Source of the DNA: Actinomycetota bacterium
Lineage (GTDB): Bacteria; Actinomycetota; Actinomycetes; S36-B12; UBA5976
Reading direction: 5' to 3'
Length of the DNA stretch: 64,000 nucleotides
Assembly (NCBI GenBank): GCA_009698575.1
Contig: WLPX01000001.1
Coordinates: forward strand, 64,924-128,923
Under the pieces are notes generated by a model. That model searched no databases, had not been told where the DNA came from, and saw nothing but the letters and a program-made list of their open reading frames with translations. The translations under genes were made by a program, and so were the position numbers. Shown one piece after another: positions 37,305-55,760 of the stretch. The stretch's first letter is position 1; each line of letters begins with the position of its first letter.

Positions 37305-37715
37305 ATGACAATAACCAACATAGAGGCTACCGAAGTCACGCCCGCGAGCCTTGGGTGGACGTATCCAGGGGTCATTATTCTGACAAGCGCGGCCATGATG
37401 GTTGTGATGGCACTTGACGTTATCTTTACCGGAGACATTGGGTTAGTTTCAAACATCGGTCTGGTTGTTGTGTGCCTGATTTCTGCTCTGAAAGTCCGTA
37501 CTGCGGACTACCAAGCTGCCATCTGGGTCGCCCCAATTGCCTGGTTGGTGTCATTGCTAACAGTTGGGCAATTGGCACCAATGCGCGGTGGCTCGTTTCT
37601 GCGGGAACAGGTTTTGCATCTTGCTTACGGACTTGCAATGCATGCTTGGTGGATTCTTGGGGCAACCGCTCTAAGCGCTGGCGTTTCAATCTTTAGGCGC
37701 GGTCGGCGGCCTTAA
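37305..37715 (+). CDS. Conserved integral membrane protein (4 TM) between ychF and ispH
   Basis: 136-aa hydrophobic ORF, positional equivalent of the mycobacterial membrane protein between ychF and lytB. Its 3' end overlaps ispH by 23 nt. Confidence 0.55.
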
Positions 37716-38655
37716 TATCTCGGCGAAGCTCAGGTGGCAACGCAAAAATCAAGTGCTCTTCAATAGTTTCAACTTCTTGCACGTCGGTATAGCCGCGCTC
37801 AGCTAACCAAACCAAAACACTATCTACTAAGATCTCGGGCACTGATGCACCACTTGTTAACCCAACGGTGTTAGCACCAGAGATCCACTCTTCGTTAATT
37901 TCGCCAGCAAAGTCAACGCGGTAGGCAGCTCCAGCACCAGCTTCTAATGCAACGTCGACCAAGCGCACGGTGTTCGAGGAATTCGCAGAACCAACAACTA
38001 GCATCACGTCGCACGCTTGTGATATTTCTTTAACTGCCTTTTGCCGATTTTGTGTCGCGTAGCAAATATCATCACTTGGCGGATCAATTAAGTTTGGGTA
38101 TTTAGCGCGAAGTAAATCTACGGTTTCTAATGTTTCATCGACTGACAATGTTGTTTGAGACAACCAAGCAACTGGCCGTGTCGGATCAACTTCGATTTCT
38201 TGTACATGTGCCGGACCATCAACCAATGTCATGTTGGCAGGAGCTTCGCCCATTGTGCCTTCGACTTCTTCATGGCCTTCGTGGCCGATGAAAAGAATTT
38301 GATAATCATCACTGGCAAATCGACGCGCCTCAGAATGAACCTTTGTGACCAATGGGCACGTAGCATCGATTGTCTTTAAGTTTCGTTGGGCCGCTTCCTC
38401 GTGGACCGCAGGCGACACTCCATGAGCGCTGAAAACTACCGTTGCGCCTTCGGGCACTTCATCAGTTTCACTAACAAAAATGGCACCTTTAGCCTCAAGT
38501 TCAGTAACCACATATTTGTTATGGACAATTTCCTTACGAACATATATGGGTGCGCCGTGTACGGCAAGCGACTTTTCAACAGTCTCTACTGCTCGATCAA
38601 CACCAGCACAATAACCCCGTGGTTTGGCAAGCAGGACTTTTTTGGTTGTACTCAC
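37693..38655 (-). CDS. ispH: 4-hydroxy-3-methylbut-2-enyl diphosphate reductase
   Basis: 320 aa. [22 protein letters not shown] and three conserved Cys regions of IspH/LytB. Confidence 0.95.
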
Positions 38656-38714: not shown

Positions 38715-39932
38715 ATGGACCAGACTGAAGTAGCCAAGCCCGGACAAGCTCCTGAGGCGCCACTGGCAGTGCACTCAGTTAGCACCTTAATTGGTGAGTA
38801 CATAGGCCGCCTCGGCACCATTTGGGTAGAAGGTCAGCTCGCCGAAGTTAACCCCCGAAAGGGATTAACCTACCTTTCGCTACGCGATACCGATAAAGAC
38901 GTTTCGCTTTCTCTATATGTTGCCTCTGGCGTTATGGACTCTTTAGCAGCAACCATCGAACAGGGCACTCGAGTTCTCGTGCAAGTTAAGGCTGATTGGT
39001 GGGCTAAGCGGGGTTCATTGCAATTTAAAGTTCTGCAGATGCGCGCAGTCGGTATCGGCGAACTTATGGCTCGGCTTGAAGCCTTGCGTAACCTCTTAGC
39101 TGCCGAAGGATTATTTAACGAAGATAGAAAGTTACCGTTGCCGTTCCTGCCTCGGCGAATTGGCTTGATCTGTGGGCAAGCAAGTGATGCGATGCATGAC
39201 GTGATTGAAAATGCCAAGCGTCGTTGGCCTGATGCGCAATTTGAAGTTCGGGAAGTTGCAGTACAAGGCGTAAATTGTGTAAAGCAAGTCAGTGCTGCAC
39301 TAACTGAACTAGATGCGATTTCTGATGTTGATGTCATCGTCATAGCTCGAGGTGGTGGCGCATTCGAAGACTTACTACCATTCAGTGACGAATCTTTGAT
39401 CCGCGTTGTCGCAGGTATCAGCACCCCAGTTGTTGCAGCAATTGGGCACGAAGAAGATCGCCCATTGATTGATTATGTAGCCGACTATCGGGCGTCGACT
39501 CCAACTGATGCTGCACGAAAAATTGTGCCAGATGTACTACAAGAGCTTTCTGACTTGAGAAATACTCGCGCCAGATTACAGACGCTGATTACGGGATTTG
39601 TCTCGCGACTTGAGCAAGAGTTGCTAGTTACCAAAAATAGGCCAGCGTTAGCCTCGCCAGCCACCTTGATTGATCAAAGGCTTCGCGACAATTCCGGAAT
39701 TCGAAGTTCCATAACTTTGCACTTGACTAACTACTTGAAATTAGAAACGGCTTATGTGCAAGGTTCTGTTAAGGCTTTGCGAGCACTCTCACCGCAAGGT
39801 ACCCTCGAGCGTGGTTTCTCGATTGTGCGAAATGATCTCGGTGGAATAGTTAAAAGTGCGGCAAATGTTGCTGTGGCCGATGAAGTTAGTATTCGCTTCG
39901 CAGATGGTGAACGAACTGCAAAAATTCTCTAG
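38715..39932 (+). CDS. xseA: Exodeoxyribonuclease VII large subunit
   Basis: OB-fold N-terminus (VWVEGQLAEV), catalytic core (IARGGGAFEDLLPF), coiled-coil C-terminus. ATG 38715 is chosen because the ORF-track start 38550 would overlap ispH. Confidence 0.9.
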   Translation: MDQTEVAKPGQAPEAPLAVHSVSTLIGEYIGRLGTIWVEGQLAEVNPRKGLTYLSLRDTDKDVSLSLYVASGVMDSLAATIEQGTRVLVQVKADWWAKRGSLQFKVLQMRAVGIGELMARLEALRNLLAAEGLFNEDRKLPLPFLPRRIGLICGQASDAMHDVIENAKRRWPDAQFEVREVAVQGVNCVKQVSAALTELDAISDVDVIVIARGGGAFEDLLPFSDESLIRVVAGISTPVVAAIGHEEDRPLIDYVADYRASTPTDAARKIVPDVLQELSDLRNTRARLQTLITGFVSRLEQELLVTKNRPALASPATLIDQRLRDNSGIRSSITLHLTNYLKLETAYVQGSVKALRALSPQGTLERGFSIVRNDLGGIVKSAANVAVADEVSIRFADGERTAKIL

Positions 39933-39949
39933 GAAGATTTCTTGGAGAT

Positions 39950-40174
39950 TTATTCCGAATCAGATTCGGAATTTGAACCTGGCCGCAAAGCTTCCAATCT
40001 GGCTTTAGCCCCAGCAAGTTTTTCTTCACATACCGCGGCCAATCGTTCACCTTGTTCCCAAAGTGTCACCATGTCATCAAGCGGTAAGTCTTTATCCTCT
40101 AACCGAAGGACAACTTCATCCAGCTGAGCTTTTGCAGCTTCATAGGTTAAATCAGAAATCGGATCTTTAGCCAT
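39950..40174 (-). CDS. xseB: Exodeoxyribonuclease VII small subunit
   Basis: 74 aa. TYEAAKAQLDEVVLRLEDKDLPLDDMVTLWEQGERLAAVCEEKL aligns with the XseB consensus (E. coli [27 protein letters not shown]...). Confidence 0.9.
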   Translation of the reverse strand: MAKDPISDLTYEAAKAQLDEVVLRLEDKDLPLDDMVTLWEQGERLAAVCEEKLAGAKARLEALRPGSNSESDSE

Positions 40175-40183
40175 GGCTTAATC

Positions 40184-40729
40184 CTACGGTTTTGCTGGTT
40201 CGAGTGACTGGGCAAAGCGACTTAATTCTTCCCATTGCACAGTGCCGGAAACAACAGTTGTGACATCGCCCTGCGTTTTAACAAATGCTCGAGTTAAGGG
40301 CTTTGCAATTTCGCATTTTTGCCACGTGGTACCAGAAATAACTTCACTGGAATCACAGGGCGCACTGTTTGTAGCGGCGGCAACAACTGTTTTAGTTGGT
40401 CCATCACTTTGCCAAAGCGATACATATTCTCCAGATTCAGTTTGAAAACCTACAAACCAACGCACATCTCCAGAGTCACCATAAGTCTCTGGTTCAAATC
40501 TGGCGCTCGTCGCGCGATACCCACTTGGGATTTCACTTGGCACCGAAATCGGCCAAGGTTGTGAAATTAGAGCACTAGAAACTGCGGCTGGGTAATCAAC
40601 CGATTGGCTGACTTCTTGCTGGGGACGCCAGGCAATCAACATAATCACCACAACCGTTGCGCCTACGGCTGCCATCGAAAGCACCATATCCCAAACGGTT
40701 TCTCGGCCACGAGGTTTGCGATTTGCCAT
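40184..40729 (-). CDS. DUF4245-family membrane-anchored protein
   Basis: N-terminal basic segment plus a single TM, then a conserved periplasmic-type domain (WPISVPSEIPSGYRATSARF...). Lies 9 nt upstream of xseB. Confidence 0.65.
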   Translation of the reverse strand: MANRKPRGRETVWDMVLSMAAVGATVVVIMLIAWRPQQEVSQSVDYPAAVSSALISQPWPISVPSEIPSGYRATSARFEPETYGDSGDVRWFVGFQTESGEYVSLWQSDGPTKTVVAAATNSAPCDSSEVISGTTWQKCEIAKPLTRAFVKTQGDVTTVVSGTVQWEELSRFAQSLEPAKP

Positions 40730-40812
40730 TTTTCTATTTTGCCTTGTTTCAGGCAGCTTCGCGCACTCACGGCTACGCGTCCACTTGGTTGGTAAAGGAT
40801 TAGGCTACCTAT

Positions 40813-42477
40813 ATGAATTCGTTTAACTACACCGAAATTCTTCCAATTGCCGATCATGAGCCAAAATACCGGCTCGTGACTACTGAGGGTATCTCCACTA
40901 CAAAAATCGGCGAACGGACTTTCTTAAACATCGAACCAAGTGTTTTAGAAAAAGTTGCCTATGAAGCGATTCATGACATTTCGCACTATCTACGCACTAG
41001 CCATCTCGAGCAGCTTCGCAAAATCATCGATGATCCTGATGCTTCACCCAATGATCGGTTTGTTGCAACAGACTTAATGAAGAATGCAAATATTGCAGCC
41101 GGCGGCGTCCTGCCAATGTGCCAAGACACCGGAACTGCAATTGTTTCAGCAAAACGCGGCTCGCAAGTATTAACGGCTGGCCCAGACGAGGAAGCGCTGA
41201 GTCGTGGAATTTATGACGCTTACCAAAAACTAAATCTTCGCTATTCCCAGCTTTCACCGATGAATATGTGGGACGAGAAAAATACCGGCGACAACTTACC
41301 CGCTCAAATTGAAATCTATTCAGATACTAAACCGGGCCATGAAAACACTTACGAGATGCTATTCATTGCAAAAGGCGGCGGCAGCGCAAATAAAAGCTAC
41401 TTGTATCAGGAAACTAAAGCAGTTCTCAATCACGATAGTTTCTTGCAATTCATGGACGAAAAATTACGCTTAATCGGAACTTCAGCTTGCCCGCCATATC
41501 ACTTAGCCGTAGTGGTCGGTGGCACAAGCGCAGAATATGCGCTTAAAGTTTCAAAGCTAGCCAGTACTAAATATCTAGATGAACTTCCAACTCATGGCGG
41601 CCCTGATGGTAACGGCTACCGAGATCTTGAAATGGAAGCCGAAATCTTGAAACTTACTCAAGGCTTTGGCATTGGTGCTCAGTTTGGTGGCAAGTACTTC
41701 TGCCACGATGTTCGTGTGATTCGGTTGCCTCGTCACGGAGCTTCGTGTCCAATTGCAATTGCAGTTTCCTGTTCAGCGGATCGCCAAGCCTTAGTAAAGA
41801 TTGATGCCACTGGCGCTTACATCGAAGCCCTCGAGACCGATCCCGCACGTTTCTTACCTGAAGTAACTGATGAGAATCTAGACGAAAGCGTTGTAAAAAT
41901 TGATTTGAATCAACCAATGGATCAAATCCGAAAAACACTTTCTGGCCTGACCGTAAAAACTCGAGTTTCATTAACAGGATCACTTATCGTCGCTCGTGAC
42001 TTAGCCCATGCAAAAGTTCTCGAGATGTTAAATCGTGGTGAAGAAATACCGCAGTACTTCAAAGATCATGCGGTCTACTATGCCGGACCAGCAAAGACTC
42101 CTGAAGGTTACGCCTCAGGTTCATTTGGCCCGACTACCGCCGGTCGTATGGATGCCTATGTTGATAGATTCCAAAAAGCTGGCGGTTCGTTTGTCATGCT
42201 GGCAAAAGGTAATCGCAGCAATCTAGTTACCCAAGCTTGCAAAGATAATGGTGGTTTCTACTTAGGTTCCATTGGTGGCCCAGCAGCTCGGTTAGCAAAA
42301 GACAACATCACAAAAGTTGAAGTACTAGATTTTCCAGAAATGGGTATGGAAGCAGTTTGGAAAATTGAAGTCAAAGATTTCCCAGCGTTTGTTGTAGTGG
42401 ATGACAAAGGAAATGATTTCTTTGCGGAAACTTTGCGACCAGTAGCCCTAAACATTCCAGTAGGGCCACCGACATAA
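40813..42477 (+). CDS. Class I (Fe-S dependent) fumarate hydratase, fused alpha-beta form
   Basis: 554 aa. MCQDTGTA cluster-ligand region, GGGSANKS and C-terminal beta-domain motifs of FumA/TtdAB-type hydrolyases. Confidence 0.9.
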
Positions 42478-42487
42478 AGGTAAGCCG

Positions 42488-42916
42488 TTAAGGCTTGAAT
42501 TTCTTAGCTGGTGGCCACGGACTCCAGCCTCGATCTAGCCAGCCTCGATAAGCCACACGATCTTGCTGCAGACAAGAAGCCTTTGAGGCCTTAGGGGCGT
42601 ATTTTGTACCACCATATTTTTGCCAAAATCCCTTTGTTACTTGCCAAGTTCCTTGGTACTTACCTTTGCCGCCCGTTGACTTGCAATTATTTCTAGATTC
42701 GGCATGTTTCAAAAACTTTGCAGTGGGTGAATTTACCCACACCTTAAATGAAATTTTTTTGCGATCTTCCTTGGACAGGTCTCGTGTGGGATCGTCAGCG
42801 GTAGCAACAACAGCCGCAGACGCTGGACTTAGAAATCCTTGTTGACTTATTACGACAGATAGCCCAAAAATTACCTGAACAGCTGACTGTTTCCAAATAT
42901 TCATTATGTTAAACAA
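42488..42916 (-). CDS. Small secreted transglycosylase-like (Rpf-type lysozyme-fold) domain protein
   Basis: Signal peptide (…SPASA-AV). AESRNNCKSTGGKGKYQGTWQVTKGFWQKYGG...WSPWP parallels the Rpf/transglycosylase-like domain (ECESGGN..GYYGGLQF..TW..YGG...PWP). Confidence 0.55.
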   Translation of the reverse strand: MFNIMNIWKQSAVQVIFGLSVVISQQGFLSPASAAVVATADDPTRDLSKEDRKKISFKVWVNSPTAKFLKHAESRNNCKSTGGKGKYQGTWQVTKGFWQKYGGTKYAPKASKASCLQQDRVAYRGWLDRGWSPWPPAKKFKP

Positions 42917-42937
42917 TTTAACAGATTCAAGCTTGAA

Positions 42938-44245
42938 CTATGCAGGTAGGTCTTCCAGCATTTCTGTTACAAGGGCAGCGATTGGAGATCGTTCAGATCT
43001 AGTTAAAGTCACGTGTCCAAACAGCGGATGCCCTTTTAATTTTTCTACAACTGCAACTACGCCATCGTGACGTCCAACTCGTAGGTTGTCACGCTGTGCC
43101 ACGTCATGAGTTAGCACGACTCGACTGTCTTTTCCAATGCGGGAAAGTACAGTTAGCAGAACGTTTCGCTCCAAAGACTGGGCCTCATCAACAATGACAA
43201 ACGTGTCATGCAGTGATCGTCCTCGAATATGAGTCAGCGGCAAAACTTCTAACATTCCGCGCTCCAAAATTTCATCGATCACGTCAGCTGAGGTAACGGC
43301 TGACAAGGTGTCAAAGACGGCTTGTGCCCACGGCGACATTTTTTCGTTTTCACTACCTGGGAGGTACCCCAGCTCCTGACCGCCAACTGCGTAAAGTGGC
43401 CGAAAAATTACTACTTTGCGATGTTGTTGTCGTTCCATCACAGCTTCTAGTCCAGCACATAGTGCTAATGCACTCTTTCCAGTGCCAGCTCGTCCACCCA
43501 ATGAAACGATGCCGATATCAGGATCAAGCAATAGGTCAAGGGCAATACGCTGTTCGGCGCTGCGACCATGGAGTCCAAAGGCTTCTCGATCACCCCGAAC
43601 CAATTGCAATCGTTTGTCGGCAGTTACTCGCGCTAATGCACTTCCCCGCTCGCTAGATAGCACGACACCGGTATGACATGGGTGCTCGCGCGCACTTTCA
43701 TGATCGATTATCTCGTCGCTATAAAGATCATCGATTTCACTTGAGCTCACTGAAACTTCAGTCATCCCAGTCCATCCGCTGGATGGCACAATCTCGGCTC
43801 GATACTCTTGCGCCTCGAGCCCAACTGCCGATGCTTTCACGCGAAGTGGCAGATCCTTACTGACCAAAACGACATCGCAACCTTCTTCGGCAAGGTTGCG
43901 AGCAACAGACAAAATTCTCGTATCGTTATCGCCAAGGCGGAATCCAGCAGGCAAAATTTCCGAATTCGTATGGTTTAACTCCACACGTAATACGCCACCC
44001 TTATCGCCAATTGGCAGCGGGGCATCTAAGCGACCGTGTTTGATGCGCAAGTCATCCAGGCTACGCAGTGCTGATCGCGCAAAATATCCAAGTTCTGGAT
44101 GAGTGCGCTTAGATTCAAGTTCAGTTATTACGACGACTGGGATGACCACCTCGTGTTCATCGAATCGAAACAATGCACTCGGGTCAGATAACAAAACGCT
44201 GGTATCTAAAACATAAGTTCGCTTTTGAGTGTTCGATTCGGTCAC
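42938..44245 (-). CDS. phoH2: PhoH2: PIN-domain RNase fused to PhoH-like ATPase
   Basis: N-terminal PIN (YVLDTSVLL...), C-terminal PhoH ATPase with GRAGTGKS Walker A and VIVDEAQ. GTG start. Confidence 0.9.
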
Positions 44246-44430
44246 GCGATCACCCCAGATTTTCAGATTTATCCGTGGGAAGGATCGGTATGGTCCGATA
44301 CCAATGACCGTAATCCTGTGTGACTTTGGATAAGGACAGACACGCCGCAGTAATACCTTTCAGATGGGTAAACTCCTGAACAACAACACGCCTGTGGCCA
44401 ATCGGTACCTCACCTACTAATCTGGGGCGC

Positions 44431-45207
44431 ATGGGAAGATTGCGCACGCTCGTTGGTGACATTGCCTACGATCTATACGGGCATCGACTCACCTCAGCGT
44501 TACCCCACGATCAATTACCTGCACATGTAGGTGTCATTCTTGACGGCAATCGGCGCTGGGCAGCTGAACTGGGATCTTCTAGTGCCTACGGACATCGCGC
44601 TGGCGGTGAAAAAATTACTGAATTCTTGGGTTGGTGCGAAGACTTAGGCGTTGAAGTTGTCACTCTCTGGTTACTTTCAACGGACAATCTTTCGCGAGAC
44701 CCCGCCGAGCTTGATGCCCTGCTGGAAATAATCGAAGAAACAGTCACGTCACTGGCAGAATCTAACCGCTGGCAAATTCATCCAGTGGGTGCCCTCGAGT
44801 TACTTCCACCTAGAACTACAGCGGTATTGAATCAGGCTAAGGAATCAACTGCCACAGTGAGTGGCTTGCTGGTGAACGTTGCAGTTGGCTATGGCGGCAG
44901 ACAAGAAGTTGTAGACGCCGTGCGCTCACTGCTGCAAGAACAGTCTGCTGCAGGAGTAACACTCGATGAATTGGCTAAGACTATCGACATCGAACATATT
45001 GCAGCTCATCTTTATACCAAGGGGCAACCTGATCCAGATTTAGTTATCCGCACTTCTGGCGAACAGCGCTTGAGTGGATTTTTATTGTGGCAAAGTGCGC
45101 ACTCAGAATTTTATTTTTGTGAAGCTTACTGGCCAAATTTTCGAAGAATTGATTTCTTGCGTGCAGTTCGCTCTTATGCGGCTCGAAATCGTAGGTTTGG
45201 AATTTAA
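44431..45207 (+). CDS. uppS: Cis-(Z)-isoprenyl diphosphate synthase (UppS family)
   Basis: [29 protein letters not shown] and EFYF motifs. Confidence 0.9.
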
Positions 45208-47267
45208 GGTCTAGCGGCAATCGTTTTTTGTAATACTGATAAATCAGTTGTTGGTGCATCGCACACAAATCCTCGACATACATACGCGGTATCGTCCGAT
45301 TTAACTTGGATTCGATTCTGCATTAACGGCTGATCTTCTCCCCAGGCATAAACCATTCCTGGGGCATTGCCCATCCCAACCAAGTTATGCATCGGTGAAT
45401 TTGGTTTTGCCGTGACCGCAACTTCACGAGGTCCATCTAGCCACATCGCAAACACTGCGCTACTCCAGCCCGCAAATCTGGTGTGGGCACTAACCAATGG
45501 CACGAGTGCAGGCATGAAAGACTCCGCCCAATTCTTTATATCTAAGTCACCCGAGAGTGCTGAGTACGTCAAAGCTGCATCTACCGTTGCCGCCCAGCCT
45601 GATGGAGTTACATTGTCAGTTGGATCGACTTGTCGAGCCGTGACATCTTTTGCAACGGGTGGTACGTCATTTGCAGTATCTGCCAGTCCAGAATTTTGCT
45701 GAAAATGTTCCTGTATGTCAGCAAGTAAAACTCCGGCAAGTTCTCGCCAGGAATCATCACCGTGAACCTGAGAAAGCGACAGGAACGCACTTGCAGTTAA
45801 TGCTTGATCTTCCAGCACGCCCATCGCGTGTAAGCCAGGTTTGCCATCGCGCGACACTCGTACCAATCGATTTGGGTAATCTGAATTTGCGCCTAAGTGA
45901 ACGCTAACCAATAAATCGCCTGCGCGAGTGGCTGCTTCAATCCAATCGGGCCGGTCGCATACCGTTCCAGCATCGACTAGGGCACGAATGGCAAGTGCGT
46001 TCCAACTAGCTACAACTTTGTCATCGCGTCCAGGTCGCGGTCGTTGCTCTCGAGCTACAAACAACTTTGTTCGTAACTGATGCCACTTGTCCCAATCATC
46101 GGGATCTTTGTGCAAAGTTAAAACAGACTTACCATCTTCGAAAGTTCCATCCGTTGTTACGTTGCATAATTCACTTACCCACTGCGCATCCGGAGCCCCA
46201 AGCACTTGGATGAGTTCTGCCGGTGTCCAAGCATAAAACGCTCCTTCATGCGAATGCTGCGTTACCGGATCAATGCTGTCGGCATCAAGGGCTGCTGCGA
46301 ACCCGCCTTCGGGAGTAAGTAATTCCCGAGTTATAAATTCTGCGGTTTCGGTAGTGATTCGAAATGCCAACGTACTACCCGTTAAGCGATACCAATGTGC
46401 ATAAATCGAAAGTAACTGAGCATTGTCGTAAAGCATTTTTTCAAAATGCGGCACGGTCCACGTTTCATCGACACTGTACCTAGCGAATCCGCCACCAAGT
46501 TGGTCATACATGCCACCTCTCGCCATGGCCTCACAAGTATGTTCAAGAATTTGCAATGCTCTTTCATCAACTGGAATAGATTCAAGAATCTGTAACGCCT
46601 GGCACCTATTTAGAAATTCCAGAGCTAATGCCGGCGGAAATTTTGGAGCAGTGCCAAAGCCGCCGTTGATTGGATCGTATGCAGCAGTCAGGGAATCGAT
46701 TCCACTAGTAACTGCAGCCAAGATTTCAGCTCTTGTGAAATCAGGTTTTGCATTCACAATCAAGTCGTTACGGGATCCGATGTGTTCCATAATTCGAGTT
46801 GCAGAATCTGAGACTCGTTCACGTTCTTTAGTCCAGGTGTCATTTAAGGCGAGTAGGACTTGGGTAAACGATGGCATTCCATGCGAAGGACGTGATGGAA
46901 AATATGTACCGGCGTACCAAGGCTTTCGATCGTGATCTAACCAAACTGACATTGGCCAGCCGCCGTGCCCTGTCATCGCCTGAGTAGCTTCCATGTAAAG
47001 CGAATCGACTGCCGGTAGTTCCTCCCGATCAACTTTTATGTTTACAAAATATTCATTCATTAAAGCTGCGACGGATGGGCTTTCAAAGCTCTCGTGTGCC
47101 ATGACATGACACCAATGACAGGCGCTGTATCCAACACTTAGAAAAATCGGCACATCTCTAGTTCGAGCTAATTCAAATGCTTCCTCGCCCCAGGGATACC
47201 AATCAACTGGATTGTCTGCATGCTGCAATAGATATGGGGATGTTGAATCTGCGAGGCGATTAGTCAC
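45204..47267 (-). CDS. Thioredoxin-domain protein of the YyaL/DUF255 family (thioredoxin fold plus alpha/alpha-barrel)
   Basis: 687 aa. N-terminal [11 protein letters not shown]...[13 protein letters not shown] is typical of DUF255. Confidence 0.85.
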
Positions 47268-47320
47268 ACTTCATTCTTGCACCTCGCGAAGCATGCACAG
47301 AATACGCAGACTCTTACCTT

Positions 47321-48535
47321 CTAGTTTTTTGTTGAACCGCTAATAATTCCTGGGCGTGAAATTACGATTCCAGACAGCATCTGAATGATCAGTGCTACTC
47401 CCAACGCAATAAACGATGCGCCCCAAGTGTGTGTTAAGTCTTTTAATAGGCCCAAAGTCAATGGCCCTAGTGCTGAAATGATGTAGCCACCACCCTGCAT
47501 AAACGACCCCAGATCTCGCGCCGTTTCGTGGCTATCGGAGCGAAGTAAAACCAGAGTCAGAGCCAGTGGAAATGATGAACCTAATCCGATGCCAAGGAGT
47601 GAAACCCATAGCCAAGTTCCGTTTTCCCACCAACCCGTAGTTGCGAAAACATAAATTCCAACTAAACCAACTGCGAAAATTGCTACGAAGATTAAGCAAA
47701 GCGTTACCTGAGATTTGAATTTCGCAGCTAGTGGCGGAACAAAAAGACCGGCTGGAAATCCGAGTAGCACTAAGAGAGCGAGTTGATTGCCGGCAATTGT
47801 TGGATCGATACCAGAATCTCGCAGGATAGATGGCAGCCAGGCATTCATGGAATGGTAATTCATGGACTGGAAACCAAAGTAAAGAACTAATGCCCAAGCT
47901 AACTTGTTATGGAACAGGCCACGCATGTCGCGAGGAGATGTCAAAGTTTCATCAACTGTTTCCTCATGACGATAAAAACGCCAAACTGCCCAAGCAACTA
48001 ATGGCAGAACGGCCCATACTTCTAAAGCTCCACGCCATGAACCAAAGGCTTCAGTAAGCGGATACGTGATTAGCGCAGCCACCGCTGCCGAAATTGATAT
48101 AGCTCCCGCAATCATTCCCATTACTCCGCCGATATTTTTTGGGAAATCTCTGCGCGTAATTATTGAAGGGACTACGTTTCCTACTGCAACACCGAGTCCA
48201 ATAATGATTGTTCCAAGATAGAGAACTACTACGGAAGGGACAAGGCGCAGGGTTCCACCGATCGCGAGAGCAATCAACGCAACTGAAACTGCTTTGTTTG
48301 GAGTTACTCGGTGTAGCAATCTAGGGACCAGCATTGCTCCAAGTCCAAACATGAGAATTGGCAAAGTACTCAACAAAGATGCTGCTGTCGCACTTAGCCC
48401 AAATTCGGCGCGAATTTCAGGAAGTACCGGACCAACGGAAGTGGTTAGTGGACGTAAGGTCATGCCGACAAAGAACAGGGGCATGGCTTTTAAAATAAAT
48501 TTTTGCTGGGACTTCACGGCAGAATCTGACACCAA
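47321..48535 (-). CDS. MFS transporter, CynX/YeaN-like
   Basis: 12 TM. N-terminal GMTLRPLTTSVGPVLPEIRAEFGLS matches the CynX-family signature. The start is TTG 48535 or, better spaced from a GGGAG RBS, GTG 48532. Confidence 0.8.
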   Translation of the reverse strand: MVSDSAVKSQQKFILKAMPLFFVGMTLRPLTTSVGPVLPEIRAEFGLSATAASLLSTLPILMFGLGAMLVPRLLHRVTPNKAVSVALIALAIGGTLRLVPSVVVLYLGTIIIGLGVAVGNVVPSIITRRDFPKNIGGVMGMIAGAISISAAVAALITYPLTEAFGSWRGALEVWAVLPLVAWAVWRFYRHEETVDETLTSPRDMRGLFHNKLAWALVLYFGFQSMNYHSMNAWLPSILRDSGIDPTIAGNQLALLVLLGFPAGLFVPPLAAKFKSQVTLCLIFVAIFAVGLVGIYVFATTGWWENGTWLWVSLLGIGLGSSFPLALTLVLLRSDSHETARDLGSFMQGGGYIISALGPLTLGLLKDLTHTWGASFIALGVALIIQMLSGIVISRPGIISGSTKN

Positions 48536-48602
48536 AACTCCCTTAGTTGATGTGCCAAGCCTACTGGGTGAAATTACTTCGCTTAATTTTGGTAGTTAAG
48601 AA

Positions 48603-48864
48603 GACACCCACCCGTCCGACCTGATTTTCGACCCCACATTCGCCTGCTGGAACTTTCGCAGCGTCAATCGCCACTACTAATCCTCACTGCAGATTTTGAC
48701 CATCTGGATCAAAGTGCAGGCAGGACTTACATCTAAACCGCACCGTGCTCAACGACCAAAAGTCGTCTTACGTGGACCGCTTTGCCTGCGGCTGGCATCG
48801 GCTTATAGCAAACCAACTTCGAAGAACTGCTTTGCTATGCAATCACGGACCCGGGTGGGTGCCT
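48603..48864 (-). ncRNA. Candidate structured ncRNA (raiA-motif-like by position; class unverified)
   Basis: Closing helix 48605-48618/48846-48861 plus nested hairpins. G-U wobbles favour the minus strand. It lies 12 nt downstream of comFC in the largest non-coding gap of the window. Confidence 0.5.
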
Positions 48865-48875
48865 TAGACGCAAGA

Positions 48876-49496
48876 TTATCGGCTTTTAGGCGAACCACAT
48901 AAAGCAATCCCAAAAACTCTTTGAGCGCCCGCGATTCGAAGAATGCCAGCCGCGCTACTCATCGTGGCACCCGTGGTTATTACATCGTCAATTAATACAA
49001 CATCTCCGGACAGCTGGCAGCGCGCGCCGAATGCTCGCGCCATATTCTTCTTGCGTTCATGCGCAGACAATCCGACTTGATCTCGCACGCAAGACTTGAG
49101 AAACAGTGCAGCTGTTAATTTCGGGCCTGAAGCTAAGTTCCTACTAACTTCAGCTCCCAAAGTTGCAATGGAATCAAATCCGCGGTCTGCGATTTTTTCT
49201 GGCGAGCTTGGAATTGGCACTAACGTTATTGGATTTGCAAAATCTGAGATCTGAAATACCGTCATTAAAGCTGATGCCAATGCAGGAGCATTTCGTTGTC
49301 GGCCATTCTTGTACTCAATTAGCTTGTCTCGCACCCAGCCTTCATACGGACTTGAGCAATAAGTTTGGGCCACATTTGTAATTGGCTTTCCAGCGAATGG
49401 ACTAATTTTCGATGAACAAGCACTACATAGGTTGTTTCCGAGCGACCCACAACTTAAACATGTTGGAGTAAAAATAAGTTCTTTGATAATCGACAC
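48876..49496 (-). CDS. comFC: ComF-family phosphoribosyltransferase-fold protein
   Basis: N-terminal 4-Cys zinc-finger (CLSCGS...CSAC) and C-terminal PRTase motif VVLIDDVITTGAT. Confidence 0.85.
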   Translation of the reverse strand: MSIIKELIFTPTCLSCGSLGNNLCSACSSKISPFAGKPITNVAQTYCSSPYEGWVRDKLIEYKNGRQRNAPALASALMTVFQISDFANPITLVPIPSSPEKIADRGFDSIATLGAEVSRNLASGPKLTAALFLKSCVRDQVGLSAHERKKNMARAFGARCQLSGDVVLIDDVITTGATMSSAAGILRIAGAQRVFGIALCGSPKSR

Positions 49497-49584
49497 TTGA
49501 AAACTGTGTCAAAAATTGTGCTATCAGATTTGTAACGTCACGTTGGTGTGAATAACTCTTAGGTGTGGTCGCATAATTCGCTAT

Positions 49585-51282
49585 CTACCTAGTAAAGAAA
49601 CCGCCAACGCCAGTTGTTAACTCAGACCAGGAACCGAAAGTCTGGCGATACAACAGCTGTTTTGAACCATCAACTACAGAAATGTAGATAATCCCACTAC
49701 CGTCAATTGCTAGTGCCTGAGTGCCCGGCGGGGTACTCGATAACTTTGTTTTCCCATCTAGCAATGACGTGTCAAACAACATCTCACCACCAGATCCGTC
49801 CGCTGCGATGGCCGCCAAACTATTTGGGCTACTCCATGCGATGTCTCGTACCTGCGAAATATTTCGCTCAATTCGATGCAAGCCCACAATCCGGGTTTCC
49901 GTATCAGTTCTAAATAAGGCACCAACTGCAATAACGTCTTGGATGCCATCTGATAGCACGACAGCAACTCTTACCCCATCTTGGGCAACCACTACTTGCT
50001 TGACCTGGTCGGTAGTTCCCAGATTAGAGACATCAACGGGGATAGCACGTGTTGTGCCATCCTTAGTTACCTCTAGTACTCCTTGACCAAAATCGGCAAC
50101 ATAGATATTTCCATCTTGATCCCACGTAGGTCTGGAAAGGACTTCACCTTGAGCGGCTACCTCAAACTCACCGGTAACTACGTTAGTAACAAGTAGCGTC
50201 TTCAAGTCATTTGTTATCGCAGCAATCTGGGAACTATCTCGATTGGCAATTGCTCCAATTAGATTTGCGGGTGCAATTAGTTTTTCAGTGGAAACATCAC
50301 TTACAACTGAATATATCTTGTCGGCTCGAATGACATTTAGAACGTTGAAGGTGGAATCAAGCAGTGGGGAGATCTCCTGCCAATCTGAGACAGTTTGTGT
50401 TACTCCAATGTCAGTTAGCGCAAGCGGTTGACCGGAGACCGTGATTCTCACACCAGAGACGTTGGGTAAAGCACTTAGTGTCCAAACAAGTTGTGCAGAT
50501 AGGGCTCGTCGAGTCAGTTCATCTGCTCCCAAGATTTCTTGAGACAGATCAACTTGGGCAATCCCGTTTACAACTGGGACTGAACCATAAGTCAATGCGG
50601 TACCAACTGGAAATGCAGTTGTAGCTACTGGACCCAGGTACGGTGTGGGGCCATCGAGTAAGGATCTTACGAGAGAAGTTGCAGCACCTGAGCTATTTAC
50701 CGGCACGATAACCGAATCTGAAACTAAAGAAGTCAGTGACGAATTCAGGAAGTAAATCGGAAAACTGCGAAACGACCTGTCCACGTCTCCAGTAGATAGC
50801 AATATGCCATCACTTAAATCTGTGATGCGCCATTGATTACTTGCGTCTTGGGAAACTTTAAATGTCCTGGAAAGTTGAGCTCCAGGATCTGCCGTTTGAA
50901 ATCTGCCTAAATCAGATATTGCACCTTGTTTCGTTGCGGCTACGACCAAACTTGGCTGTTGACCCGAAACTTCAATTGAATTTGCCTCATATACTTCGAT
51001 GCCGGCTGCTGGATTCCATGTTGTAGCTGAATCTGCTGTTAAGTACTGTCGCGCAATCGCATAGTCACCTGATGGGTCAGCGCATGCTTCAAGGAAGCCA
51101 CGAACGATTGCTTCTGGCTCCATGTCGGCAGTAGGCGGCCGCGCAATAACGCGAACAAACTGAGTGGAACTATCTTCGGAAATCACTTCACCAAAATAAA
51201 CGTCACTCGAAGTAGGGATTCCACCACAACCTGATAGCAACAAGATCGTTGTTAGAGCAGTCCCAAATTTGTTTAGTTTCAT
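49585..51282 (-). CDS. lpqB: Lipoprotein LpqB (MtrAB accessory protein)
   Basis: Lipobox LLLSGC, GerMN-type domains, 4-nt overlap with mtrB. Confidence 0.9.
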   Translation of the reverse strand: MKLNKFGTALTTILLLSGCGGIPTSSDVYFGEVISEDSSTQFVRVIARPPTADMEPEAIVRGFLEACADPSGDYAIARQYLTADSATTWNPAAGIEVYEANSIEVSGQQPSLVVAATKQGAISDLGRFQTADPGAQLSRTFKVSQDASNQWRITDLSDGILLSTGDVDRSFRSFPIYFLNSSLTSLVSDSVIVPVNSSGAATSLVRSLLDGPTPYLGPVATTAFPVGTALTYGSVPVVNGIAQVDLSQEILGADELTRRALSAQLVWTLSALPNVSGVRITVSGQPLALTDIGVTQTVSDWQEISPLLDSTFNVLNVIRADKIYSVVSDVSTEKLIAPANLIGAIANRDSSQIAAITNDLKTLLVTNVVTGEFEVAAQGEVLSRPTWDQDGNIYVADFGQGVLEVTKDGTTRAIPVDVSNLGTTDQVKQVVVAQDGVRVAVVLSDGIQDVIAVGALFRTDTETRIVGLHRIERNISQVRDIAWSSPNSLAAIAADGSGGEMLFDTSLLDGKTKLSSTPPGTQALAIDGSGIIYISVVDGSKQLLYRQTFGSWSELTTGVGGFFTR

Positions 51283-52832
51283 GGGGCGCCTGCCGCAATT
51301 GCTACTTGCAAAATCTGGCCATGCTCAGTTCTAGGCAAAGTCAAAACAAACTGTGCTCCGATGCCTGGCGCACCCCAAACATCTATCAAGCCACCGTGAA
51401 GTGCGGCATCTTCGGCAGAAATGGAAAGTCCTAACCCGGTGCCACCCAAAGTTCGTTGGCGCGCAGGGTCAGCACGCCAAAATCTGTCAAAAACTCGAGC
51501 TAAATCTTCAGTCGCAATTCCTTGCCCATAATCCCTTACCGAAATTGAAACGCAGGATTCATTTCCGGCAATATCTATTTCGATTGCAGACCCATCACAG
51601 TGCCCTATTGCATTTACAACTAGATTTCTAACAATTCGGGAAATACGTCGCTGGTCTGCGGTAACAATAGCGTCTCCAACTGTCGAGAAATTGAATTCAG
51701 TGTTGTGATCTAAGGCAATCTGCACATTCTCACTTAAGATCACTTCGGTTAACTTGCCCAGATTCACCTTAGATAATTCCAGTGGTGCCGCACCGGCATC
51801 AATCTTGCTCATTTCGAGTAGGTCACTTAGTAGAACATCAAATCGATCTACCTGATTTCGAAGAAGCTCTGCTGAACGTGCCATGTCAGGATCAAAATCT
51901 GCTCGAGCGCCATAGATCATCTCGCTTGCCATGCGAACTGTGGTTAGAGGTGTTCGCAACTCATGCGAGACATCAGAAACGAATTGTTGCTGGACCTGTG
52001 ACAAGGACTCCAGGCGAATAATCTGGCTTTGCAGACTGGACGCCATTTCGTTTAGTGATCCTGCTAGCCGAGCAATGTCATCTTCACCATGTACTTGCAT
52101 TCGCCGATCCAGATCACCAGATGCAATTTGCACTGCAATTTCAGCAGCCTCACGAACTGGATCGGTGACCCGCGAAGTAACAAACCAGGCAAGAATCAAT
52201 AAGCTAATCAACAAAAATACACCTGTAATTGCAACGCCTTGTCTTACCAAGTCAATGGACTTTTGCTCCTTGTCAAGGGGAAATAGTAAATACAGTTCAT
52301 AAGCGCCAATGCGAGGAATTGAAACTGGAGCTCCCACAACTAAACCCTGAGCCGTGGCTCCGCCCTCATAAATTAAAGTTGAATAAGCCCATGCCTGACG
52401 ATCGCGCTCGCGGATTGCGGCGCGCAGGTCAGTTGGTATTGATTGTTCGGAAATAAGTTTTGTGCCGCGCTCTGGTACTCCCGCTAAGTCTGGGTCACTT
52501 AGAAATATCGCGTCGTAAAGTCCAGGAGAACCAGCTCGAACAGCTAATGCAGTAATTACTGAATCAACAATTCTGGTGCTGTTAGGTGCAACTAATCCAG
52601 CATCAGCAGCATCTAATAGGCGCTGGACTTCCAATCGAGCGGCAGTAGCTTCTGTTAATGCACTTTGCTGTTTAGCCTCAAGTAAGCCAGCGGAAACTTG
52701 ATTTACGAGCAAAATTCCAACCGCACTCAGAATTGAAATTGAAACTAGTGCCGTAATTATTACAAGTCTCAGTTGCAGATTGCGACGCCACATCTGCACA
52801 AAAGTTGGTTTGTTTGGAGCTGAATTGCTCAC
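51279..52832 (-). CDS. mtrB: Sensor histidine kinase MtrB
   Basis: Two TM helices flanking an extracytoplasmic domain, HAMP, H-box SHELRTPLT, and N/G boxes (GGTGLGLSI). Confidence 0.9.
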   Translation of the reverse strand: MSNSAPNKPTFVQMWRRNLQLRLVIITALVSISILSAVGILLVNQVSAGLLEAKQQSALTEATAARLEVQRLLDAADAGLVAPNSTRIVDSVITALAVRAGSPGLYDAIFLSDPDLAGVPERGTKLISEQSIPTDLRAAIRERDRQAWAYSTLIYEGGATAQGLVVGAPVSIPRIGAYELYLLFPLDKEQKSIDLVRQGVAITGVFLLISLLILAWFVTSRVTDPVREAAEIAVQIASGDLDRRMQVHGEDDIARLAGSLNEMASSLQSQIIRLESLSQVQQQFVSDVSHELRTPLTTVRMASEMIYGARADFDPDMARSAELLRNQVDRFDVLLSDLLEMSKIDAGAAPLELSKVNLGKLTEVILSENVQIALDHNTEFNFSTVGDAIVTADQRRISRIVRNLVVNAIGHCDGSAIEIDIAGNESCVSISVRDYGQGIATEDLARVFDRFWRADPARQRTLGGTGLGLSISAEDAALHGGLIDVWGAPGIGAQFVLTLPRTEHGQILQVAIAAGAP

Positions 52833-52835
52833 GAT

Positions 52836-53513
52836 TTAAGATTGCCCTGCTTTGTAACCAACGCCACGTACTGTGACCACGATTTCCGGATGGTCAGGAT
52901 CAATTTCAATTTTGGCTCGTAGGCGCTGGACGTGCACATTAACCAGCCTGGTGTCCGCAGCATGTTGGTATTCCCAAACTTCTTCGAGCAATAATTCTCG
53001 AGAAAACACCTGCCACGGACGCTTTGCTAACGTCAATAACAATTTGAACTCAAGAACCGTCAATGAAATTTCTTTGGATCCGCGTTTAACAGAGTGTCCA
53101 GCAATATCAATTACTAAGTCACCGATTTGAATTTCATTCAAAATCGGGGTTTCGATCGAACGCAATCGAGCACGAATTCTGGCAAGTAGCTCTTCGTTCT
53201 TTATTGGCTTAACTATGTAGTCGTCAGCCCCGGATTCTAATCCTGTGACAACGTCGGCTGAATCGCTTCTTGCGGTTAGCATCACAATTGGTACACCGCT
53301 CGATTCTCGAATTGCCCGGCAAACATCGATGCCATCTCGACCTGGCAGCATTAAGTCCAGTAGAACTAGATCCGGCGCTACTGCCTTAAAAGCGGTTATT
53401 GCCTGTAAACCATCTGCACAATATGAAACTTCAAATCCTTCGCCACGAAGCAGGATGCCCACAATCTCAGCAATGGATTGGTCATCCTCAATAACCAAAA
53501 TGCGATGGCCCAC
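52836..53513 (-). CDS. mtrA: OmpR-family response regulator MtrA
   Basis: Receiver domain (ILVIEDD...LDLMLPG) plus winged-helix C-terminus (VTVRGVGYK). Lies upstream of mtrB-lpqB. Confidence 0.9.
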   Translation of the reverse strand: MGHRILVIEDDQSIAEIVGILLRGEGFEVSYCADGLQAITAFKAVAPDLVLLDLMLPGRDGIDVCRAIRESSGVPIVMLTARSDSADVVTGLESGADDYIVKPIKNEELLARIRARLRSIETPILNEIQIGDLVIDIAGHSVKRGSKEISLTVLEFKLLLTLAKRPWQVFSRELLLEEVWEYQHAADTRLVNVHVQRLRAKIEIDPDHPEIVVTVRGVGYKAGQS

Positions 53514-55091: not shown

Positions 55092-55760
55092 TTAGTTCCG
55101 ATCGAATCGAAACCCAAGACCACGCACTGTTGAAACATGCTCGCCTTCTGCGCCAAGTTTTCGACGCAAAGCTGATACATGCATGTCCAGATTCTTCGTA
55201 GTCCCTGACCAATTTGTATTCCAAACATCACGCAAAATTTGCTGGCGGCTAATTACTCGCCCAGAATTACGCATTAACAGTTCTAATAGGCTGAATTCGG
55301 TGGAAGTTAAGAGAACTTCTGTTTCGCCTATGTAGCAAGTGCGCGCTTCGGAATTCAAGGTAATCCCATTTCCAATTAATTCAGTTACGTCATGGCCATC
55401 TACGCGACGAATCAAGGCACGCAGTCTGGCTAAAAGTTCAGGAGACTTAAATGGTTTAATGATGTAGTCATCGGCACCAGCATCCAATCCGACAACTAAG
55501 TCCAGCTCCGAGGACCTCGCAGTAAGAATCAGAATGGGCATATCGTATTTTTGAGCGCGTAAAGTACGACATATCTCGAGGCCGTCCATATTTGGAAGTC
55601 CCAAATCAAGAACGATCATGTCAGGTTTGGTAGTTCTGGCTTTTTCAAGTGCAGCAACGCCATCACCTACAAGTGCTACTGAATAACCTGCAGCCTGAAG
55701 AGAGCGCACTAGTGGAACGGCGATCTCAAGATCATCCTCCACTAACAAAATTCTGGTCAC
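55092..55760 (-). CDS. OmpR-family response regulator
   Basis: Receiver (ILLVEDD...DLGLPNMDG) plus winged helix (VSTVRGLGFRF). Confidence 0.9.
   Translation of the reverse strand: MTRILLVEDDLEIAVPLVRSLQAAGYSVALVGDGVAALEKARTTKPDMIVLDLGLPNMDGLEICRTLRAQKYDMPILILTARSSELDLVVGLDAGADDYIIKPFKSPELLARLRALIRRVDGHDVTELIGNGITLNSEARTCYIGETEVLLTSTEFSLLELLMRNSGRVISRQQILRDVWNTNWSGTTKNLDMHVSALRRKLGAEGEHVSTVRGLGFRFDRN

Follow-up and report, generated by a model that had tools for sequence, protein, structure and literature searches.

The 64-kb window analysed here, a 64,000-nt stretch of contig WLPX01000001.1 from an uncultured freshwater actinomycete, carries between a ComF-family gene and a CynX/NimT-like MFS transporter gene a gap of 340 nt, which by the public gene calls for the organism is the largest intergenic stretch of the whole window. 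The gap follows the minus-strand genes mtrA (52836-53513), mtrB (51279-52832), lpqB (49585-51282) and comF (48876-49496, 206 aa, stop codon 48876-48878), and the MFS gene (47321-48532), also on the minus strand, lies downstream of it. We conclude, with a probability of roughly 90%, that what occupies the gap past comF is an orthologue of the raiA motif RNA (ModT), a highly structured trans-acting non-coding RNA of approximately 200-260 nt found in Bacillota and Actinomycetota. A crude tiling of open reading frames had left two larger gaps in the window, but the gene calls place a response regulator in one of them (55092-55742) and ispH in the other (37693-38655).

When the whole window was scanned against Rfam 15 at gathering thresholds, the sole match was to RF03072 (raiA RNA), on the minus strand from 48607 to 48859 (253 nt). 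Its score of 153.3 bits (E = 3e-38) is well above the gathering score of 101.3, and the match is not truncated, taking in model positions 1-209 of 209. All other Rfam families stayed below their gathering scores throughout the 64-kb window, and RF03072 had no match on the plus strand. An earlier note on this DNA, made from the letters alone, had guessed the raiA class, had proposed a covariance-model search that included other RNA families as alternatives, and had placed the RNA on the minus strand, co-oriented with comF and starting just past its stop codon. The search bore out each of these points, as the match lies on the minus strand only and begins 16 nt from the comF stop. Two stem pairs, 48700:48708 and 48751:48767, had also been singled out as diagnostic of the strand. 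On the plus strand position 48700 is C and 48708 is A, while 48751 is A and 48767 is C; as had been described, each pair is an A-C mismatch there but a G-U wobble on the minus strand. The minimum free energy was -99.4 kcal/mol for the minus strand (z = -3.6 relative to 200 shuffles) and -81 kcal/mol for the plus strand (z = -3.5). With a z of about -3.5 on either strand, energy does not distinguish the two, and it is the covariance model and the wobble pairs that assign the strand. The locus would be labelled in any annotation that makes use of Rfam. Rfam 15 types RF03072 as 'Cis-reg; riboswitch', which is at odds with the experimental results showing trans action (PMC10861870, PMC11706538).

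The defining features of the family are all found in the window RNA: a bulged P1, a P3 hairpin with a PK1 loop, an invariant P6 stem and the UUAGAnGUAA linker. The extended P1 closing helix (48605-48618/48846-48861, minus strand) consists of the part modelled by Rfam (48607-48618/48848-48859) plus two base pairs outside the Rfam match, C48861-G48605 and A48860-U48606. CA...TG flanks P1 in seven of seven sequences from the window's own clade (described below) and in most of the other actinobacterial sequences examined (L155, L205, L023, L048), and 48605-48861 is probably the full structured unit. P1 is built of three segments, reading CCCACCCGG-GU-CCGUGAUU on the 5′ side and AAUCA-GGU-CGGACGGGUGGG on the 3′ side, and its GU and GGU bulges are as defined for the family (PMC12968392). 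At the position of P2 there is a hairpin at 48805-48838 (stem 48805-48812/48831-48838, minus strand), which the Rfam model treats as an insertion of 34 nt; a P2 stem occurs in 42% of raiA family members (PMC12968392). A further conserved hairpin is formed by 48752-48756/48762-48766 (minus strand). The P7-position hairpin (48687-48719, minus strand), visible as an insert in the model alignment and in the fold, is extended, with an outer stem CUGCA/UGCAG (48687-48691/48715-48719) and an inner stem UUUGAUC/GGUCAAA (48695-48701/48707-48713). Every helix that the earlier note had listed was recovered when the window sequence, the Rfam alignment and the fold were compared. With the optional P2, P7 and P8 stems all present, the window RNA is, by its sequence, of the full eight-stem subtype. 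The single-stranded linker before P6 (48727-48736, minus strand) reads UUAGAUGUAA in the window and UUAGAAGUAA in clade relatives, and so differs only at the known variable position of the family consensus UUAGA(C/A)GUAA.

Compensatory substitutions, for which a covariation check had been proposed at the outset, were strong both family-wide and inside the clade. We aligned 87 distinct raiA sequences with MAFFT, which is blind to structure, and took the base pairs from the Rfam consensus by way of the window row, so that the structure tested was independent of the 87 sequences. Standard pairs filled 88.8% of cells, compared with 33-48% when the 3′ partner was slid by 1-3 columns, and 29 of the 55 pairs were altered on both sides. 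The covariation score of 0.391, which none of 500 shuffles reached, compares with at most 0.106 for the slid controls. Within P1 (P1a/P1b), 10 of 12 pairs showed compensatory changes. The same 87 sequences had G10, U11 and a CAGGUC block invariant or near-invariant, and the TTAGAnGTAAG block of the linker near-invariant. For the peripheral hairpins that Rfam does not model, eight clade sequences were 96.9% paired with 12 double-sided pair changes; the structure in this case was derived from the window sequence, which biases the percentage paired but not the double changes. The P2-position hairpin accounted for three pairs altered on both sides (98.2% paired within the clade) and the outer and inner stems of the P7-position hairpin for six.

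A de novo covariation scan restricted to columns that are unpaired in Rfam found P3a and P3b, at RNA positions 59-61/81-83 and 64-66/74-76, with covarying pairs 59-83, 61-81 and 65-75. The P3b loop AGCCGCA (67-73) pairs with 118-124, which is helix 4 of the Rfam model; this helix is 98% paired with three double changes and, as read from the alignment, is equivalent to the PK1 pseudoknot described in the literature. For PK2, in which the 5′ part of the linker would pair with the P1c-P4 connector, a single candidate pair in the expected region, 115-231, covaries strongly over this long distance (CG/UA, mutual information 0.86).

The comF homologues of the window's clade are almost all metagenomic, and four were traced to contigs. 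In L087, L088 and L092/L093, whose comF products are 46-55% identical to that of the window, the order is comF, a gap of about 330-370 nt, MFS, DUF255, uppS and PhoH. In the most divergent, L090/L091 (comF 39% identical at the protein level), an AlkZ-like gene on the opposite strand lies past the gap. All six loci from these four relatives have a full-length raiA match of 145-153 bits in the corresponding place, 14 nt from the comF stop where the window has 16 nt. In L087, L088 and L092 the RNA shares 94-95% identity with that of the window, and in L090 83.5%, while in the same comparisons mtrA is 66-74% identical, mtrB 59-71%, lpqB 56-64%, comF 56-59% and the MFS gene 66-67%. No other part of the locus is under nearly as much constraint as the RNA, and an identity of 94-95%, set against approximately 73% for the adjacent essential mtrA regulator, underlines the strong selection on it.

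A metagenome scan with two family-invariant segments yielded 119 further loci, in which the RNA ends were set by an nhmmer profile, and three of these were additional clade members (L121, L193 and L157). In L157 (821-1073) the 3′ end of the RNA diverges abruptly, with ATCTCGCGAAGGTAGTGG in place of ATCAGGTCGGACGGGTGG, and the 5′ strand of P1 differs too (CGAGCCCGGG); these differences may stem from a chimeric assembly or be genuine variation in P1. A cousin freshwater lineage of about 58% GC (L155/L205) has a 240-nt RNA that is 72% identical, in the order mtrA-mtrB-lpqB-comF-RNA-secA (L155:1893-5704, also L205), which is the mycobacterial gene order minus the hpf between RNA and secA. The canonical order comF-RNA-hpf was found in three high-GC actinomycete reference metagenome-assembled genomes (MAGs; L020, L023, L048) and in L122. 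The range of the raiA family thus takes in a low-GC clade of freshwater actinomycetes that is abundant and uncultured. Candidatus Planktophila (L012, L015), of the acI lineage, has mtrA and mtrB upstream of comF and neither a raiA RNA nor hpf past comF, so retention of the RNA at the comF locus is not universal among low-GC freshwater actinobacteria.

The sequence just upstream of P1 suggests that the RNA is transcribed from its own housekeeping-type promoter, with a -10 hexamer 11-13 nt before P1. In the window the candidate is TAATCT (TANNNT type; 48873-48878, minus strand), 13 nt upstream of P1, the first three bases of which are the comF stop codon TAA. When 15 actinobacterial sequences were lined up, a TANNNT hexamer starting 17-19 nt before P1 was seen in 14, the exception being L193 (TAACCG). 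Closer clade members have TAACCT or TAGCCT and L090 has TAGCGT, a variant shared with L020, L023 and L048, whose GC contents are 70-76%; TATCGT, TATACT, TAGAAT and TAAGTT occur elsewhere. The distance from hexamer to P1 is constant whether comF ends 16 nt (window), 49 nt (L155), 71 nt (L122) or 332 nt (L023) upstream, and it is this fixed distance to P1, whatever the distance to comF, that suggests a promoter belonging to the RNA. Among 99 unique loci, 55 have a TANNNT starting at -20 to -16, compared with a background mean of 8.9 in other 5-nt windows. The predicted transcription start would lie near 48864-48866, and a conserved hexamer at a fixed distance across Actinomycetota makes this a testable start-site prediction. 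In C. difficile, ModT has a single SigA-driven transcription start site just upstream, and the clostridial promoters are conserved (PMC11706538); the window hexamer fits the SigA-dependent start mapped there. The overlap of the hexamer with the comF stop looks like the compaction typical of a small genome, and could couple the translation and termination of comF to transcription of the RNA.

With regard to the 3′ end, a U-rich tract, UGUCUUCUUAAC (48595-48606, minus strand), lies directly past P1 and, together with P1, is a possible 3′-end or termination signal. Six of seven clade members have 5-8 T in the first 12 nt past P1, and we would tentatively place the end of the RNA at or shortly past P1. 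A second TANNNT hexamer, TAGGCT (48558-48563, minus strand), lies some 25 nt ahead of the MFS start codon and is a candidate promoter for the MFS gene. Six clade members keep TAGGTT, TAAGTT or TAGGCT in a spacer between RNA and MFS gene that is otherwise divergent, and this conserved hexamer, taken with a GGGAG Shine-Dalgarno sequence (48538-48542, minus strand, 5 nt ahead of the GTG at 48532), suggests that the transporter has a promoter of its own.

Several observations weigh against our interpretation of the locus as an independently transcribed, trans-acting RNA. A simple sigma-70 scan of 47200-49700 found no promoter on the minus strand and no canonical intrinsic terminator, and the -35 region is weak and lies within constrained comF coding sequence. 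The clade member L193 has TAACCG, not TANNNT, ahead of its RNA and is also without the U-rich tract. For the host organism, we infer the promoter, the 3′ end and the independence of the RNA from the comF and MFS mRNAs from sequence. Furthermore, the functional data on the class are all clostridial, with none from Actinomycetota, and carrying them over to a planktonic actinomycete would be an extrapolation.

The empty promoter scan and the weak candidate -35 would suit a scenario in which the RNA has no promoter and is instead the 3′ untranslated region (UTR) of the mtrA-mtrB-lpqB-comF mRNA, freed by processing, with the tight comF spacing reflecting co-transcription. The gap from comF stop to P1 is constant at 14-16 nt in five of five clade lineages, as this scenario would have it, and family-wide the RNA is associated with comFC in 74% of cases, usually on the same strand (PMC10861870; Weinberg 2017). 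However, the TANNNT hexamer keeps its distance to P1 and not to comF, being present where the comF end is 49, 71 or 332 nt away, and it occurs in genomes of 70-76% GC, in which it is rare by chance; in C. difficile, moreover, the start site just upstream of the RNA is SigA-driven (PMC11706538). We regard a purely 3′ UTR origin as unlikely. Its own promoter and processing from the comF operon are not mutually exclusive, and the 3′ UTR route is possible as an additional source of the RNA.

The earlier note had offered a different alternative, that the RNA acts in cis on the CynX-like MFS gene 74 nt downstream on the same strand, as its 5′ leader or as a riboswitch. The two are co-oriented, a short spacer of 66-98 nt is kept in the window and three relatives, the scan of 47200-49700 revealed no canonical terminator from the RNA to the MFS gene, transporter (PBP) genes lie downstream of some family members (Weinberg 2017), and a cis-regulatory riboswitch is what the Rfam label says. 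This alternative fared poorly when the relatives were compared, since the downstream gene varies and is once on the opposite strand: a near-identical RNA precedes the opposite-strand AlkZ-like gene in L090/L091, the gene that follows is secA in L155, and it is hpf in L020, L023 and L048. The spacer, in addition, has its own conserved -10-like hexamer and a Shine-Dalgarno sequence for the MFS gene, and the literature, with complementation in trans and no ligand binding in vitro, disfavours a riboswitch. A leader function therefore seems very improbable to us. Least credible of all is that the region encodes a small protein, either from a 68-aa plus-strand open reading frame (ORF) at 48696-48902 or from a minus-strand frame like the 63-aa gene of L092, and that the RNA structure is incidental. 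Mechanical ORFs do exist in the region, and a public gene caller put that 63-aa gene over the RNA 3′ end and spacer of L092 (7605-7796, on a JGI metagenome contig). Nevertheless, none of the clade members has an open frame that runs across the element, and the lengths of the frames vary among relatives; the substitutions are compensatory in stems and not codon-periodic; the L092 ORF has no Pfam match on record; and the covariance-model E value is 3e-38. In L092 the gene caller has almost certainly mistaken part of an RNA gene, with the spacer, for a 63-aa coding sequence.

We return to the raiA RNA and the genes that accompany it. The earlier note had described an intact mtrA-mtrB-lpqB-comF block followed by a CynX-like MFS gene, with no raiA/hpf next to the RNA. 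Domain matches confirmed these genes and their order, and no hpf was found anywhere in the 64 kb or beside the RNA in clade relatives. In the window, tblastn with three actinobacterial HPFs and an unfiltered six-frame profile search revealed no HPF-like sequence (best E of about 2); secA, khpA and khpB are likewise not in the 64-kb window. A profile search with 11 HPFs gave no sequence attributable to the host MAG among the best 120 of at least 8000 matches; these 120 came mostly from high-GC actinomycetes. The absence of hpf next to the RNA had been read, on condition that the class was raiA, as an RNA retained without its namesake. The absence stands, but it is not remarkable: in a published survey of 887 genomes the raiA gene follows the RNA in only 66% and comFC precedes it in 74% (PMC10861870), so that 34% of members without a downstream raiA were already on record. 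The gene downstream of the RNA is gntR in C. acetobutylicum (PMC10861870) and a phosphotransferase system (PTS) antiterminator in C. difficile (PMC11706538). A missing hpf is thus a common, already published context. In our metagenome sample, which was pattern-selected, redundant and biased and in which the sensitivity of the hidden Markov model for hpf was limited, hpf came next after the RNA in 18 of 97 loci with enough flank and comF came before it in 57 of 102.

The converse arrangement was also seen. We surveyed 80 reference comF loci, picked via a generic phosphoribosyltransferase peptide pattern from among the matches listed (best relative 34% identical). Within this set comF was followed by hpf in 21 of the 80, and only six of the 21 carried the RNA. 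At the Rfam gathering level and by nhmmer, no raiA RNA was found at comF-hpf loci of Mycolicibacter, Mycobacterium, Rhodococcus, Corynebacterium, Tetrasphaera, Homoserinibacter and others (L034, L061, L039, L041, L029, L082, L008). Mycobacteria had been cited as a reference for the locus; this holds for their comF-hpf gene order, but not as a model of an RNA between comF and hpf, as the sampled loci carry no RNA. Given the series comF-RNA-hpf, comF-RNA-secA and comF-RNA-MFS, and the reciprocal comF-hpf loci without RNA, the RNA and hpf are, on this comparison of loci, separable in both directions, and the RNA tracks comF, not hpf. A plausible scenario is that hpf was lost or relocated in the freshwater clade and that a rearrangement then took place just 3′ of the RNA, which would have stayed linked to comF. 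It is doubtful, although conceivable, that the freshwater clade and its comF-RNA-secA cousin have lost hpf genome-wide while keeping the RNA almost invariant. If this were true, it would amount to a natural separation of function, with an RNA role that does not go via the long-form hibernation factor, and streamlined planktonic actinobacteria would provide a pared-down setting in which to look for the true partner of the RNA.

What the RNA might do in this host can be approached through its clostridial counterparts. raiA/ModT is an independent, constitutive, very abundant and stable transcript, and its deletion in C. acetobutylicum impairs sporulation and aggregation in a manner that can be complemented in trans (PMC10861870). 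Loss of ModT in C. difficile perturbs growth-phase transition, cyclic di-GMP, sporulation and toxin production, and the defect is rescued in trans, also by distant orthologues (PMC11706538). Cryo-electron microscopy has revealed a compact core that is conserved and from which the P1 arm protrudes, and the KhpA-KhpB KH-domain heterodimer binds four raiA RNAs in vitro (Kd of about 2 uM), probably via the exposed UUAGA(C/A)GUAA linker, which is its proposed binding site (PMC12968392). By analogy, the window RNA would act in trans, as an RNA-protein particle, on growth-phase physiology, and it may bind KhpA-KhpB through its linker UUAGAUGUAA. In a planktonic and presumably non-sporulating host, the expected output would be a switch between growth and stationary phase or dormancy. 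The earlier note had argued for a trans-acting role from the missing neighbour; trans action itself is well founded in the published complementation (PMC10861870, PMC11706538), but it is not new. Indeed, the RNA class, its linkage to comFC, its frequent separation from raiA/hpf and its action in trans have all been published already.

The likeness of the window RNA to raiA/ModT (RF03072; Weinberg 2017, Soares 2024, Lence 2024) covers the helices, bulges, pseudoknot, linker and full-length model match, and extends to a position downstream of a co-oriented comF, a GC content above that of its own genome and a candidate housekeeping-type promoter directly upstream. It departs from the typical case in its low-GC freshwater host, in having no downstream hpf/raiA (within the published 34%) and in the overlap of its -10 with the comF stop. 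A close structural counterpart is Ns-raiA of Nocardioides sp. Iso805N, the RNA behind the most complex of the structures solved by cryo-electron microscopy (PMC12968392), which is likewise actinobacterial, 253 nt long and equipped with all optional stems, the P1 GU and GGU bulges and the linker. The variable linker position is U in the window and C in Ns-raiA; these two RNAs were compared by published description. The C. acetobutylicum and C. difficile loci resemble that of the window in having comFC upstream and a gene other than raiA downstream (gntR and the PTS antiterminator), and since these loci do without a downstream raiA, such an RNA can evidently function in trans with no hpf beside it. 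Unlike the window RNA, those of C. acetobutylicum and C. difficile have no P2. The long isoform of C. difficile ModT ends at a downstream intrinsic terminator, whereas none was seen in the window between 47200 and 49700. Only a broad likeness links this class to 6S RNA and others of its kind, which are also abundant, stable, growth-phase-linked and trans-acting structured RNAs with a protein partner. 6S RNA has a different fold and forms a separate family, and the proposed partner of raiA RNA is KhpA-KhpB, not RNA polymerase.

As for the surroundings of the RNA, its host is an uncultured freshwater actinomycete of about 47% GC that turns up repeatedly among lake metagenomes and MAGs. It is not Planktophila-like, with an MtrA identity of 54%, as against 67-68% to other actinomycete MAGs. 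Past the MFS gene come a DUF255/thioredoxin-like gene, uppS (plus strand), PIN-PhoH, an Rpf-like transglycosylase, fumarase, xseB/xseA, ispH and ychF. The genes from uppS to ychF (38900-48535) would correspond, by the gene order of M. tuberculosis, to a block that is conserved in actinobacteria but is found at another place in mycobacteria; if so, a synteny breakpoint would fall immediately 3′ of the RNA, and the RNA would have been kept with comF.

Both genes that flank the RNA appear to be shortened in public annotation. The MFS transporter, which lies outside the RNA (MFS_1; TIGR00896 CynX, 293 bits), most likely starts at the GTG at 48532, which aligns with the ATG of relatives. A public assembly calls a product of 380 aa from the ATG at 48463, where relatives have 400-401 aa, and this start is probably mis-called. 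The ComF-family gene, for its part, is called at 129 or 165 aa (P0004, P0127). Its product has Pribosyltran and DZR_2 matches, both weak, and matches TIGR00201 comF over its full length (E = 1e-20), under the curated cut-off. The 206-aa form from the GTG at 49496 aligns over its full length with 22 homologues, including four invariant cysteines at the N-terminus (C13, C16, C24 and C27) that form a zinc-ribbon-like motif, and on account of this alignment the long form is probably the correct one.

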